From a virus (Duplodnaviria > Heunggongvirae > Uroviricota > Caudoviricetes), in the IMG/VR virus record IMGVR_UViG_3300018475_000004: a stretch of 64,000 nt of DNA; one strand, given 5' to 3'. Positions 1 through 64,000 of the stretch are shown piece after piece. The translations under genes and the position numbers were made by a program. Each line of letters starts with the position of its first letter. The first letter of the stretch is position 1. The notes beneath the pieces were generated by a model that was not told the DNA's origin, ran no database searches, and saw nothing but the letters and a program-made list of their open reading frames with translations.

Positions 1-931
1 AGAAGTTGTAAAATTAAATCCTAATAATTACGCTGAAGATATTAATGGTAATCCAGTAGATATTGAAAGTGGAAGTGCAGGAGATGTAATGATTGCTTTT
101 CCAAGAAGAGGATTAAGAATTACTAAAAGCGACGATAATAAAGTTACTGTTAGTTTTACAAATGATATTGCTAATACAGATTTTACTTATTACGCACATA
201 CGCATAATAAAGATTTAGATACATTTTATACTGGTGCTTATGATGGCTATATTGATAGTGATGGTAAATTACGTAGTTTAAGTAATAAAACCCCTACGGC
301 TTCTAAAACTATTAGTGAGTTTCGTGCGGCAGCCCAACTAAATGGCGATGGTTATGAGTAGTTTGCTTACTATCAATTAGTTTATTTATAGGCCATGTAT
401 GTTATAAAATATAAATCTTTGAATGGACAAACTGCTCTCGGATATGGTTATACTAATAGTTCTAATTCTGCTCCTATTATTACTGGAACAATGAATAATC
501 AAGGATTGGATTATGGTGGAACGGATACTGAAGGTATGAAATTTGCGGGAATTGAAAATTTTTGGGGTAATATTTCTAAATGGTGTGATGGCATTGTTAC
601 TGATGCTTCTAGAAATTATTTAACTACTACTGGAGCTTTTGATGATTCTGGCACTAATTATGAATTTACCAATGCTTCTGGACTCACTAGTAATACTTAT
701 GGATATTATACCAATTGTTTAGGTACTAGTGAAGGCGGATTTGTTATAACGGCTAAAGGAGGTAGTGGTACAACTTACTTCTCTGATTATGCGGGTTGCA
801 ATTCGTCTCGCGTCGCGCGCTTCGGTGGTTATTGGGCTAACGGGCTGGCTTCTGGTCCTTTCTTTCTGCGTTTGAACGATTCCGCGTCGAGTGCGAGTGC
901 GAATGTCGGTGGCCGCATCCAAAAATTATAA
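1..931 (+). CDS. DGR target protein, C-terminal part (5' end lies outside the window); C-type-lectin-like variable region at the C-terminus; two in-frame TAG codons (359-361, 389-391) presumed read through
   Basis: The frame starting at nt 2 is open from the window edge. ORF-track entries 89..361 and 395..931 are in the same frame and separated only by TAGs. The C-terminal 'GGYWANGLASGPFFLRLNDSASSASANVGGRI' maps onto the VR, which differs from the downstream TR only at TR adenines. The stop is TAA 929-931. Confidence 0.6.
789..918 (+). repeat. DGR variable repeat (VR) at the 3' end of the target gene
   Basis: About 130 bp aligned with the TR at 1000-1129. There are about 25 mismatches and every one falls where the TR has A; no other substitutions occur. 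Confidence 0.85.
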
Positions 932-935
932 AAAA

Positions 936-955
936 TTTAAAGAATAGTAAAATTC
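936..955 (+). other. Short hairpin (aaagaat/attcttt, 6-nt loop) 18 nt after the VR end
   Basis: Inverted repeat seen directly in the sequence. Its position resembles the hairpins found downstream of VRs in characterised DGRs. Confidence 0.3.
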
Positions 956-999
956 TTTGAATATATGGGTTACTTATACGATAAAATATTTATTCCACG

Positions 1000-1129
1000 A
1001 TACGAATTGCAATTCGTCTCACGTCACGAACTTCAGTAGTAATTGGAATAACAGGCTGAATACTGGTCCTTTCTATCTGAATTTGAACAATTCCACGTCG
1101 AATGCGAATGCGAATATCGGTGGCCACTG
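1000..1129 (+). repeat. DGR template repeat (TR), non-coding; rich in AAY codons when read in the VR frame
   Basis: Near-identical to the VR except at adenines. In the VR-equivalent frame it reads TNCNSSHVTNFSSNWNNRLNTGPFYLNLNNSTSNANANIGGH, with at least 14 AAT/AAC codons. ORF-track entry 957..1163 is this repeat, not a gene. Confidence 0.85.
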
Positions 1130-1344
1130 TTTTGTTATTGACTTTATTTATAACTCTCTTTGAGAGTTTTATATATTTGCAGTATTTTATCAAGTATATA
1201 AACCTTGCCTCTTGGCAAAATTCTTCCGATGATTGGGTGTTAGTAATTTATTTTATAATGAACGCTCTCGTAATCAAAAATAAAAATAAGGGTAGAGTCT
1301 TATTTAGGTTCTACCCTAATAACATATAAAGGAGGTCATTGTTT

Positions 1345-1533
1345 ATGACCATTGAAGAATTATATGAAATTATTAAAGAACAATAGAAGAGAATAGAAAT
1401 TCTTGAAAAGGAGCTTCTATATTTAAGAAAGTGGTCAGATGACAATGACTACTGGTTAAGAGAAATGATTGATGCTTTAACTGAGAGCGTCGATAAATTG
1501 TGTGGTATTGATCACACTGGTGAATATTGATTA
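1345..1533 (+). CDS. Small hypothetical protein (62 codons) with an in-frame TAG at 1384-1386; possible DGR accessory protein (speculative)
   Basis: AAAGGAGG RBS 9 nt upstream of ATG 1345. The frame is open to TGA 1531-1533 apart from one TAG. Confidence 0.3.
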
Positions 1534-61445: not shown

Positions 61446-61777
61446 TGTTAATTTTAGAAGAAGTATTCAAAAATGGTCCCGACGACATTCAAGAGCGAAT
61501 GAATGTAATTGCTAATTCATTTGATGCGCTACTTCAACTTCAAACTGATGTTCAGGCGCAGGGTAACTGGTGTAGTGGATGCGGTCGCTGGTACTATAAA
61601 AAGGATTGTAATACAAAGTTTTTTGAAGAAGAAAAGACAACTTGCATCAATCCATTGATGGGTTACCTAGAACCCTATGAGTATGAGAAAGAAATACATA
61701 TTGAAGCGGCCACCATGTGTCCAGAAGGACATGAGATTGGTAAGCGCCGTTGGGCAGGAACGAGGAAAAAAGAATGA
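61445..61777 (+). CDS. Hypothetical Zn-binding protein (110 aa)
   Basis: 'CSGCG'; TGA stop. Confidence 0.4.
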   Translation: MLILEEVFKNGPDDIQERMNVIANSFDALLQLQTDVQAQGNWCSGCGRWYYKKDCNTKFFEEEKTTCINPLMGYLEPYEYEKEIHIEAATMCPEGHEIGKRRWAGTRKKE

Positions 61778-62094
61778 TAAAAGGTGTTATTTGGTCCTGT
61801 GATAGAGCAGGCGATGGTGTAAGACAATTAAAATGCGTCCGAGATGAATATATTTGGAAAGGTATCAATCCAGTTAGAGAAATATATTCCCGTAGTAATT
61901 CATTTATTGAATTTGAAAATGGAGATTATTGGAGAGTAGCTCCCGCAAATGAAAGCGGTAGAGGTATTCGTGCCAATTATGCTTTGATTGATGCTCGTGT
62001 ATCTCAGGAATTTTGTTATCTTGTAATTTTACGAACCCTTTGCTGTCCTTTTGGTCCTCGTCACTACGAATTTTTTTATCCTAAGGAGTGGTAA
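61774..62094 (+). CDS. Hypothetical protein
   Basis: ATG overlaps the preceding TGA. Confidence 0.35.
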   Translation: MIKGVIWSCDRAGDGVRQLKCVRDEYIWKGINPVREIYSRSNSFIEFENGDYWRVAPANESGRGIRANYALIDARVSQEFCYLVILRTLCCPFGPRHYEFFYPKEW

Positions 62095-62120
62095 GGATTA
62101 TGAAAGGAGGTTGATTTCTT

Positions 62121-63914
62121 TTGGAATATCAACTAATAGTACCTCGCATCCCGCACAAGGATGTTTTATCTGCGGTCGAACAGGTACTCGTAAATCGTGG
62201 CATTGAACCCGATAAAATTGAGCATTATCTAAATACAACTGATGAAGACATTTTAGCACCCTCCCTTATTGCGAATATCGCGTAGGGTGTAAAGCTGTTG
62301 ATTTATCACATCTCGCAAGGACACAAGATCCTAATCCAAATTGATAGCGACTGTGATGGTTACACTTCAGCGGCAACACTAATCAATTATTTGAACTGCC
62401 TATTTCCTGGATATGTTCAGAATAATGTTTATTACCGCATCCATAATGGTAAAGAACATGGTATTATTCTCAATACAATTCCAGCTGATGTAAAGTTGGT
62501 AATTGCGCCAGACTCAAGTTCAAATGATTATGAAGAACATAAAAAGCTCCATGAGCGTGGAGTAGATGTTCTGGTTATTGACCACCACGAAGCTGAAAAA
62601 GTTAGCGAATATGCTTGCGTTATCAATAACCAGCTATGTGATTATCCAACTAAATCTCTTTCTGGTGTCGGCATGGTTTATAAGTTTTGTTCTTATATTG
62701 ACGAACTTATGAATGTTGATTATGCCGATCAGTTTCTTGATTTGGTTGCTCTTGGCATGATTGCCGATATGATGGATTTGAGAGATTTTGAAACCAAGCA
62801 TTTAATTCATCGTGGCTTACAAAATATCAGAAATCCTTATTTCAAAGGCATGGTTGATAAGCAACAGTATTCGCTAAAGGACGGTATCACTCCTATTGGT
62901 ATTGCGTTCTATGTTGCTCCATATGTCAATGCTACTATCCGAATGGGTAGCCAAGAGGAAAAGTTATTGATGTTTGAATCGATGTTAGATTATCGTGGAT
63001 ATGAGCTAATTCCTTCAACCAAGAGAGGCTGTAAGGGTCAGCAAGAAACTCGCGTAGAGCAGGCGTGCCGAAATTGTACGAATATCAAAAATCGTCAGAC
63101 TAAGGCAAGAGATGCTGCGCTTGAGACTATTGAAGCTATTATCAAGCAAAAAGATTTATTGAAGAATAAAATTCTGGCAATCAAGCTGGATTCTTTTTCT
63201 GCGGATCGCAATCTAACCGGTCTTATCGCCAACCAACTTATGGCTAAATACCAGCGTCCAGTTTTACTACTGAATAAGACAATTACTGAGCAAGACATAT
63301 TTGATACCAATGGTAAGAAGATTATGACTTTACAGGAGCAAAGCTGGGAAGGCTCTGGTCGTGGTTATGATAAATCTAAGTTTGATAATTTGCGCCAGTT
63401 CCTACAAAATAGTGGCCTGGTAATGTATGCGGAAGGCCATGCTAATGCGCTCGGCGTTGGCATTTACGATAAAGTATTTTCTGAATTTGTGGAGTATTCA
63501 AATAAGGCTTTGGCTGAGTTTGATTTTACTCCTTGTTATAAAGTTGATTTCATTTTCAGTGGAGCAGATTTCAGAGGTAGTGATATCATTGAGATTGCTG
63601 GTTTGAAATCTCTTTGGGGTCAAGGCGTTGATGAACCATTTGTTGCTATTGAACATATCAATGTATCAAGCGGTAATATTGTGCTCATGTCTCCCGATAA
63701 GAGTCCTACTTTGAAGATCACTTTACCAAATGGCACAAGTCTTATCAAATTCAAATCTTCTCAAGAAGAATATGAGAAGTTGAAGAGTGAGATGGGTTGT
63801 ATCACCATCAATGTAGTTGGCAAATGTGAACGCAATGTCTGGAACGGAAGTGTTTCTCCTCAAATTATTATTGAGGATTATGAAATTGTTGGTGAACAGA
63901 AGTATTACTTCTAA
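62121..63914 (+). CDS. RecJ-like DHH-family ssDNA exonuclease; TTG start after an AAAGGAGG RBS; in-frame TAG at 62283-62285
   Basis: DHH motifs 'IQIDSDCDGYTSAA' and 'VIDHHE'. The frame is open from 62121 with a single TAG. ORF-track start 62298 has no RBS. Confidence 0.6.
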
Positions 63915-63923
63915 GGAGGATAT

Positions 63924-64000
63924 ATGGCATTACAAGTATTAACTGCTGATGGCGCAAAGTACATGGTTGATCTAATCCAAGATAGAGTTGATATGCTAAC
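63924..64000 (+). CDS. Hypothetical protein, 5' part (continues beyond the window)
   Basis: AAGGAGG RBS then ATG 63924. Confidence 0.3.
   Translation, partial: MALQVLTADGAKYMVDLIQDRVDML

Follow-up and report, generated by a model that had tools for sequence, protein, structure and literature searches.

Sparse in-frame amber codons in a large phage genome are probably read as glutamine through a phage-encoded suppressor tRNA

The window analyzed here is a 64,000-nucleotide stretch of phage DNA (IMG/VR record IMGVR_UViG_3300018475_000004; the first 64,000 nt of JGI contig Ga0187908_10001604) in which the reading frames of several genes contain the amber codon TAG, and the subject of this report is how these codons are read. 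The window belongs to a phage genome of ~200 kb with replication genes similar to those of Bacillus phage SPbeta: an SPbeta-type replication module is formed by YorF, YorH, DnaB, and RecJ, followed just downstream of the window by the alpha subunit of DNA polymerase III (Pol III alpha). All genes of the window lie on the + strand, and the curated set comprises 83 genes with 20,013 codons. Pfam groups represented include the target protein of a diversity-generating retroelement (DGR), a Flg_new adhesin, a protein resembling the shoulder of the major vault protein (MVP), a sigma factor, a Thg1-like protein, NAD salvage enzymes, two Band_7 proteins, PhoH, an endolysin, gyrase, ligase, ThyA, and DHFR; few if any virion genes were recognized. 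A very large family of related contigs (130–225 kb) was found in IMG/VR and ENA, while the annotated phage collection held no close relative, and no nucleotide-level similarity to SPbeta was detected. The probable host is one of the Clostridia of the animal gut or rumen; relatives have been binned in metagenome-assembled genomes (MAGs) of Agathobacter and Acutalibacteraceae, which is weak as host evidence, and neither an integrated prophage nor a CRISPR match came to light. The features discussed below are collected in Table 1, in which L-labels denote loci read from contigs; L005 (1–3049) is the stretch just upstream of the window in the same genome, and L288 is a locus on a 183,267 nt contig of the same phage (ERZ27248436:k141_1895590).

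Table 1. Features of the window and of adjoining parts of the genome (window coordinates unless a locus is named; aa, amino acids; ORF, open reading frame; VR and TR, variable and template repeat; RT, reverse transcriptase)
Feature	Coordinates	Strand	Remarks
DGR target gene paralog	2..931	+	5' end cut by window edge; in-frame TAGs 359-361, 389-391
Small ORF, 61 codons	1345..1530	+	In-frame TAG 1384-1386; weakest case
Adhesin-like protein, 1393 aa	2612..6793	+	Flg_new repeats, five C-terminal ~140 aa modules; TAGs 2723, 3083, 6002
MVP shoulder-like protein, 833 aa	6923-9424	+	
Endonuclease	12739..13467	+	DUF2726-like C terminus, Zn-ribbon repeats; in-frame TAGs 12781, 13357
Thg1-like protein	16527-17309	+	tRNA 3'-5' polymerase family (precomputed Pfam)
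Phage sigma-70 family factor	19053-19958	+	
NAD+ cluster	25183-33563	+	Isochorismatase, phosphoribosyltransferase, SIR2, NAMPT, NAD synthase, NADAR, NMNAT-like CTP_transf_like
YqeY	26613-27161	+	GatB-tail-like tRNA-binding domain (precomputed Pfam)
Band_7/SPFH proteins	34151-35095, 38057-39589	+	One has the strongest codon bias of the window
Zn-ribbon gene, 85 aa, conserved	36165..36422	+	Sole TAG-terminated gene of the window (TAG 36420-36422)
Small membrane protein, 84 aa	40243..40497	+	Upstream of PhoH gene and endolysin; in-frame TAG 40432-40434
Endolysin, four domains, 556 aa	41782..43452	+	In-frame TAGs 42091, 42565
GIY-YIG nuclease	52672..53631	+	N-terminal transmembrane helix and coiled coil; TAGs 52753, 52786, 53020; GIY-YIG domain residues 231-311
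RecJ-like DHH exonuclease, 597 aa	62121..63914	+	In-frame TAG 62283; DHH and RecJ_OB domains downstream of TAG
Promoter copies 1-8	1613-1644, 6844-6879, 9457-9492, 12624-12658, 14598-14633, 18981-19016, 20507-20542, 24393-24425	+	
Promoter copies 9-16	25127-25159, 28211-28245, 32355-32390, 33804-33839, 35134-35167, 36101-36136, 44089-44121, 55265-55297	+	
Second DGR target gene	L005 1-969		Upstream of window
VR1	L005 822-955		Upstream of window
TR	L005 1006-1139		Upstream of window
RT gene	L005 1361-2506		Upstream of window
Suppressor tRNA(CUA)	L288 9840-9914		Last of 18 tRNAs

Fifteen in-frame TAG codons were located in 8 of the 83 curated genes, in frames containing neither TAA nor TGA. An earlier note on this DNA had reported such codons in at least seven continuous genes, and all of the positions that it listed were found; two of its gene ends, 13468 and 1533, are corrected to 13467 and 1530. 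Two further TAGs in automatic ORF calls (16488 and 36343) were rejected as artifacts, one being upstream of the true start and the other off frame. As a terminator, TAG was used by a single curated gene, compared with 62 ending in TAA and 20 in TGA; such avoidance has a probability (at most 1 of 83) of 2e-5 if 15% TAG stops are expected and of 0.0016 if 10% are expected. The two off frames of these genes contain 231 and 183 TAGs. If the in-frame TAGs are counted with the glutamine codons (223 CAA and 338 CAG), they make up 15 of 576, or 2.6%. Seven of the eight TAG-bearing genes are backed by homology or recognized domains. Codon-usage log-odds keep to one frame on either side of most of the TAGs, and many TAGs are followed by stretches of up to 282 codons devoid of ATG, GTG, or TTG, which therefore cannot be translated independently. 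As the earlier note had anticipated, annotation under the standard code fragments the affected genes: the JGI gene calls do so, while the ENA calls do not.

The endolysin provides two domains that are each interrupted by a TAG. By Pfam, Phage_lysozyme2 (residues 3–165) spans TAG 42091 and Peptidase_M15_3 (residues 199–296) spans TAG 42565, with PG_binding_1 and SH3_3 coming next in an unchanged frame, in agreement with the four domains in one frame described in the earlier note. TAG 42091 is opposite Q in orthologs (DLNMQLDF, DCKMQLEY), giving SIGDLEM-Q-LEFLIK as the read-through peptide with glutamine, and no start codon is present within 42568–42843. The small membrane protein nearby had been listed, together with the gene at 36165, as one of two small ORFs ending at a TAG. 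This description holds for 36165–36422 only; the other ORF reads through to TAA 40497. Its segment PPTR[TAG]IGFQVP matches PPKRQIGFCVP in the ortholog at L034 (one of four parts, with L013, L014, and L217, of the 191,974 nt relative IMGVR_UViG_3300024272_001728), and homology continues to the acidic C terminus and the TAA. With glutamine at the TAG, the read-through peptide is DQDPPTR-Q-IGFQVPDDDQEEEEVIEDDV. ENA likewise calls an 84 aa product; there is no start codon after the TAG, and the PhoH gene starts at ~40487. At 36165–36422, the L034 ortholog stops at the same place, the AAA_33 kinase gene begins there, and coding potential departs from the frame after the TAG, where read-through would add 31 residues, to TGA 36515.

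In the adhesin-like protein, the tandem modules do continue over TAG 6002 as had been claimed, in that module 4, which holds this TAG, matches the four paralogous modules on both sides of it (E values of 6e-33 to 3e-14). Neither 2726–3082 nor 3086–3931 contains an ATG, GTG, or TTG, though the Flg_new repeats start at residue 355, and coding potential is unbroken over all three TAGs, consistent with the ENA call of a single 1393 aa product. A search for homologs of the N terminus spanning TAGs 2723 and 3083 found none. The endonuclease shares a conserved GRK N terminus with its paralog at 15776–16513, after which TAG 12781 falls inside an FG(K/R)LTV repeat motif. The homology past the TAG noted earlier is borne out; TAG 13357 is opposite Q in 16 of ~31 distinct homolog contexts (RQYRDK), and the segment from 13360 to 13461 lacks a start codon.

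For the GIY-YIG nuclease, the earlier note was sure of TAG 53020 and regarded 52753 and 52786 as possible. Homologs in relatives span residues 1–319 as a single ORF and 41 of 69 homolog matches begin at or before residue 20, which places the three TAGs inside the gene; at the 53020 position the closest relatives carry TAG as well, and at the 52786 position they carry either Q or TAG. The in-frame TAG of the RecJ-like exonuclease is likewise upheld, with orthologs of 80–82% identity aligning over it (E, Q, and others at the site). The evidence is thinnest for the small ORF at 1345–1530. Its TAG at 1384 is indeed in frame, coding potential is positive after it, the next in-frame start is at 1465, and ENA calls the 61 aa read-through product; however, a homolog search found none, and this case relies on ORF logic only.

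Both TAGs of the DGR target gene are in frame as first described, are opposite Q (encoded by CAA or CAG) in the paralog of the same genome, L005:1–969 (YEQFA, YLQAM), and have Q at these positions also in other target homologs, with coding potential staying in frame on both sides. The VR that had been noted downstream of them proved degenerate: window VR 782–909 shows 50 mismatches, of which just 28 are at adenines, and thus looks decayed or served by another template. A clean VR, TR, and RT lie upstream of the window, where all 30 mismatches of VR1 to the TR fall at TR adenines. Over 381 codons, the frame of the RT gene there is free of TAA and TGA and contains 11 TAGs, together with 10 CAA and no CAG codons, and the gene has a GC content of 22.9% as compared with 40.9% for the window. 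One of its TAGs is at a near-invariant glutamine (NYQIFP; Q in 56 of 60 homologs). Given the clean adenine signature and the 11 TAGs, the RT must be read through if the DGR is active. The RT gene has the appearance of a recent acquisition from a phage that is far richer in AT and heavily recoded. Assembly breaks occur within the 5' parts of the two target genes, which are repeated.

The identity of the residue was approached through alignments. In the window, TAGs 359, 389, 13357, 40432, and 42091 are opposite mainly Q in homologs. In well-aligned parts of conserved genes of the relatives, 331 in-frame TAGs (225 unique contexts) were observed as compared with 8 TAA and 1 TGA, and the residues opposite these TAGs were Q in 51% (162 of 318), E in 12%, K in 7.5%, and N in 7%. 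Residues opposite true CAA and CAG codons were Q in 59%, K in 7.8%, and E in 7.1%, while true lysine codons had K in 66%. The log-likelihood of the TAG profile was −604 for glutamine and −1000 for the next best residue, glutamate. The assignment of TAG to glutamine made in the earlier note thus agrees with Q-dominated alignments both at window sites and across the family.

No tRNA gene was found in the window by ARAGORN or Rfam, nor by ARAGORN in the first flanking loci. The earlier note had proposed a search for a suppressor tRNA with anticodon CUA, and such a gene was found on the 183 kb contig of the same phage. This contig is identical to the window from 6849 to 64000 (100%; L288 9927–22502 corresponds to window 6849–19424), and directly upstream of the window-identical part it carries the 18 tRNAs. 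The tRNA(CUA) fits the Rfam tRNA model from end to end, with 51.5 bits (threshold, 29 bits). It has a standard cloverleaf with the anticodon loop CUCUAAA and a U1-U72 mismatch, and its 3' end has G73 and an encoded CCA. Besides the suppressor, only the two tRNA-Gln genes of the L288 array combine U1 with G73. The tRNA(CUA) ends 12 nt upstream of the promoter copy at window 6844–6879, where the contig switches to the window sequence; the junction thus joins the end of the tRNA to the promoter of the MVP-like gene (L288 9915–9927/window 6849). Compared with the 202,962 nt contig from this phage, the 183 kb contig is short by 19.7 kb, a deficit close to what omission of the remaining array, the DUF2828 gene, the DGR, and the adhesin would produce. 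It represents either a natural deletion variant without the DGR and adhesin or an assembly that took a shortcut across the repeated promoter. Given the 100% identity and the matching length deficit at a repeated promoter, the tRNA(CUA) is taken as part of this genome.

In relatives, the array holds one or two tRNA(CUA) genes in the corresponding position, in the order Ser(tga), a small CxxC protein, the suppressor, and Leu(taa), with the DUF2828 gene and the MVP-like gene downstream. In three of them (L122 4043–4192, L131 1154–1303, and L200 10691–10841), two tRNA(CUA) genes of different types abut, one like the suppressor of this phage and the other beginning UGGGG as does tRNA-Gln, and in L197–L199 there is just one tRNA(CUA), of 97 nt and with a long extra arm (L197 10759–10855). 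A metagenome-wide scan with the anticodon arm of a relative's suppressor, GCGGGCTCTAACCCCGC, did not return contigs of this phage, whose tRNA(CUA) differs from the scanned relative's in the anticodon stem. Searches for the array of this phage through its neighbors (the small CxxC protein and DUF2828) matched other relatives only, the family being very diverse, and the DGR RT search for relatives returned mostly unrelated DGR-bearing phages, with L044 as a relative carrying tRNA(CUA).

Taken together, these observations indicate that UAG is read in this phage as an amino acid, almost certainly glutamine, through a phage-encoded tRNA(CUA), a reading to which we give a probability of about 0.9 from sequence evidence. 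In the proposed mechanism, UAG would be decoded by the tRNA(CUA), located where a large phage tRNA array ends, immediately before the region that the window covers. This tRNA would be charged with glutamine by a host enzyme, either glutaminyl-tRNA synthetase or glutamyl-tRNA synthetase followed by GatCAB, and would compete against host release factor 1 (RF1) with suppression presumably efficient enough for full-length proteins to be made. UAG would then be a rare codon, nearly gone as a terminator and confined to an AT-rich gene class that includes the endolysin and the adjoining membrane protein.

Several observations weigh against this interpretation. The apparent in-frame TAG density of the window, 0.25 per kb, is within the noise of a crude whole-locus caller, which gave 0.2–0.4 per kb even in relatives whose array, as far as it was read, lacked a suppressor tRNA and whose coverage hardly rose when TAG was read as sense; the case therefore rests on site-by-site evidence. 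At the level of sites, TAG 6002 is opposite V or I in the paralogous modules, TAG 12781 is opposite K, TAG 42565 is opposite T or P, and the conserved gene 36165–36422 keeps its TAG stop. The 183 kb contig has its junction, at a repeated promoter, 12 nt away from the tRNA(CUA), which leaves some room for a chimera with a co-occurring relative, and the 203–206 kb contigs were read only to 3 kb upstream of the window. In the ~84 kb of this genome that were read, neither a release-factor gene nor an aminoacyl-tRNA synthetase gene is present, and the inserted residue is deduced from sequence.

The distribution of the TAGs among genes bears on when they are read. Genes of the curated set fall into two codon classes by GC content at third codon positions (GC3). 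The AT-rich class (GC3 <0.35; 32 genes) prefers CAA (165 CAA, 69 CAG) and holds all 15 in-frame TAGs, whereas the GC3-rich class (GC3 >=0.35; 51 genes) prefers CAG (58 CAA, 269 CAG) and holds none (Mann-Whitney p ~2e-4). Membership in the AT-rich class is a better predictor of TAG than late-gene status. The earlier note had the TAGs concentrating, though not exclusively, in late genes; this claim fails for the window, which consists mainly of NAD salvage, sigma factor, gyrase, ligase, thymidylate synthase, and replication genes. A refinement of glutamine decoding, rather than a reading contrary to it, is that UAG has two meanings, being a stop under host RF1 early in infection and glutamine once the suppressor has accumulated, so that UAG-containing genes, including lysis genes, would be made only late or at a lower level. 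Borges et al. (10.1101/2021.08.26.457843) put forward this model for recoded phages. It is in keeping with the natural TAG stop retained by the conserved gene 36165–36422 and with a modest enrichment in the endolysin and the neighboring 84 aa protein, whose 642 codons together include 3 of the 15 TAGs (Fisher p = 0.011). However, TAGs are also found in RecJ, the two nucleases, surface proteins, and the DGR RT, and replication genes of relatives are full of them. In addition, the endonuclease at 12739, with two TAGs, and the TAG-terminated gene at 36165 both follow the same type of sigma-70-like promoter, which shows no sign of separation in time and gives no clear support for an early-versus-late partitioning. 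We regard two meanings of UAG as a tentative refinement that is rather unlikely.

Far less probable is that the standard code holds and that the TAGs are true stops in split genes or pseudogenes. Standard-code ORF calls and the JGI annotation do break the TAG-bearing genes into fragments, some of which, such as 395–931 of the DGR target gene and 62298–63914 of RecJ, have start codons of their own, and TAG density is low. Under this code, however, two catalytic domains of the endolysin would be halved, long conserved segments would be left without any start codon, and the RT gene would fall into 12 fragments even though its DGR bears a clean adenine-mutagenesis signature. It is further opposed by the presence of tRNA(CUA) and by the internal stops of the family, which are nearly all TAG (331 versus 9 TAA and TGA) and aligned with glutamine. 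Self-splicing introns or inteins were rejected as a cause of the interruptions, each of which is one codon; Rfam at its gathering thresholds gave no match in the window, either to introns or to any further RNA family.

Insertion of pyrrolysine or another residue other than glutamine is still less credible. ARAGORN labels the suppressor “tRNA-Pyl,” a label given to any CUA anticodon, and K is the most frequent aligned residue at TAG 12781 and at several TAGs of the RT gene. tRNA-Pyl is atypical in structure, whereas this suppressor has a canonical cloverleaf and matches the general tRNA model over its full length; the 7.5% of K opposite family TAGs equals that at true glutamine codons (7.8%) and is far from the 66% at lysine codons, and no pyl genes are found in the ~84 kb annotated of this genome. 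Sequencing or assembly errors, one of the refutations named in the earlier note, can be dismissed, as nothing was found in their favor, errors would hit other stops too and would not fall at glutamine positions, and the TAGs are unchanged between the independent JGI and ENA assemblies and 100% identical in five further ones from the two repositories (JGI 3300029705, 205,979 nt; ENA ERZ27248370, 202,962 nt; ERZ27248436, 183,267 nt; ERZ27248326; and ERZ27248351), identity among independent assemblies that rules this source out.

Reading of UAG as glutamine can also be placed within the family. Relatives range from no detectable in-frame TAG (e.g., L013 and L217, in which TAG stops are also depleted) to more than two per kb, and in the most recoded ones coding coverage rises from 0.55 to 0.90 with TAG as sense. 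In the parts read of IMGVR_UViG_3300024272_001728, no tRNA(CUA) was present among 17 tRNAs and no convincing in-frame TAG was seen, with TAG terminators at 0 of 27 and 1 of 18 in two loci; this relative fits a stage in which TAG is depleted and not yet recoded. With TAGs only in its AT-rich class and a foreign RT gene adjoining, the present genome could conceivably be at an early or mosaic stage of recoding, though we hold this to be doubtful. The suppressor may serve as a compatibility key by which genes from heavily recoded relatives become usable, with TAGs arriving mainly by gene flow rather than by in situ mutation. The AT-rich class may also be a regulon that depends on the phage tRNA array, with UAG marking its most tightly gated members.

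In-frame TAG read as glutamine by means of phage suppressor tRNAs is established for crAss-like and Lak phages and for several gut clades infecting Firmicutes, and stop depletion before recoding, differing codes in close relatives, and recoded lysis genes have been published for recoded phages (10.1101/2021.08.26.457843). Glutamine insertion in crAss-like phages was demonstrated by proteomics (Peters et al. 2022, PMC9523058). In each feature tested, the phage is of this recoded kind (code 15). By described features, it resembles the large Jade, Sapphire, and Agate clades (10.1101/2021.08.26.457843), with which it shares a genome in the range of ~150–210 kb, an animal gut origin, Gln-aligned TAGs, a tRNA(CUA), few TAG stops, variable recoding among close genomes, and recoded lysis genes; it departs from them in the very low extent of its recoding (8 of 83 genes and 2.6% of glutamine codons), which is limited to the AT-rich class. 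Similarly, phAss-1 of the proposed genus Phassvirus (OQ749652; Babkin et al. 2023, PMC10607447) combines TAG recoding with a predicted Clostridia host and a related Pol III alpha, and also has tRNA arrays, with 36 tRNAs in phAss-1, including three tRNA-SUP-CTA, and no dedicated aminoacyl-tRNA synthetase. It differs in its genome of 136 kb versus ~200 kb, in TAG use (28% of ORFs versus ~10% here), and in a Pol III identity of just 38%, no nearer than SPbeta. crAss-like and Lak phages share the reassignment and the proposed mechanism of a suppressor tRNA acting against a standard-code host, but have Bacteroidetes hosts and unrelated gene content, whereas this phage has an SPbeta-type module (YorL-like Pol III, YorF, and YorH) and relatives binned with Clostridia MAGs. 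No close kinship to crAss-like or Lak phages was seen, searches of the phage collection giving only SPbeta-like phages, phAss-1, and unrelated huge phages, at no more than 39% identity. The best matches among cultured phages are SPbeta and its relatives, with 38–39% identity over 99% of Pol III alpha and the YorF and YorH families in common. The SPbeta genome is ~134 kb; SPbeta is not known to depart from the standard code or to carry a suppressor tRNA.

Several other features of the genome were observed. Sixteen + strand copies of a near-identical sigma-70-like promoter with an extended −10 element (TTGATTTTTATAAAAAAATATGATATAATAT) are distributed over the window, most of them 20–45 nt upstream of the next gene start and 85–97% conserved in relatives. 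The junction in L288 is exactly on one of the 16 copies, and the repeated promoter appears to cause assembly jumps. The tRNA array of this phage contains a full-length ROOL RNA (RF03087, 323 bits; L288 5158–5783), as do those of relatives (L197 6505–7091, L200 6504–7116, and L122 7982–8394); no function is known for ROOL, a large RNA of rumen origin (PMC5737381, PMC12286853). The L197 array also has a match to RNase P class A RNA (13789–14083), and L200 and L122 have partial OLE-like matches barely above threshold. As a speculation, the Thg1-like protein and YqeY could act in maturing or charging the U1-U72-mismatched suppressor. The NAD+ cluster may counter NAD-depleting host defenses. For the MVP shoulder-like protein, the sole matches in the phage collection were three unannotated metagenomic records of 462–735 kb, at 39% identity.

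For annotation, use of the standard code breaks the genes for the endolysin, adhesin, RecJ, GIY-YIG nuclease, endonuclease, DGR target, and DGR RT and misses the 84 aa membrane protein beside the lysis gene. Although the phenomenon itself is already established, the phage is a very sparse user of UAG in a family ranging from none to more than two TAGs per kb. This range could help to order the events of a reassignment, namely loss of the stop, gain of the suppressor, and spread of the codon, and the family could provide a test of codon spread by gene exchange.

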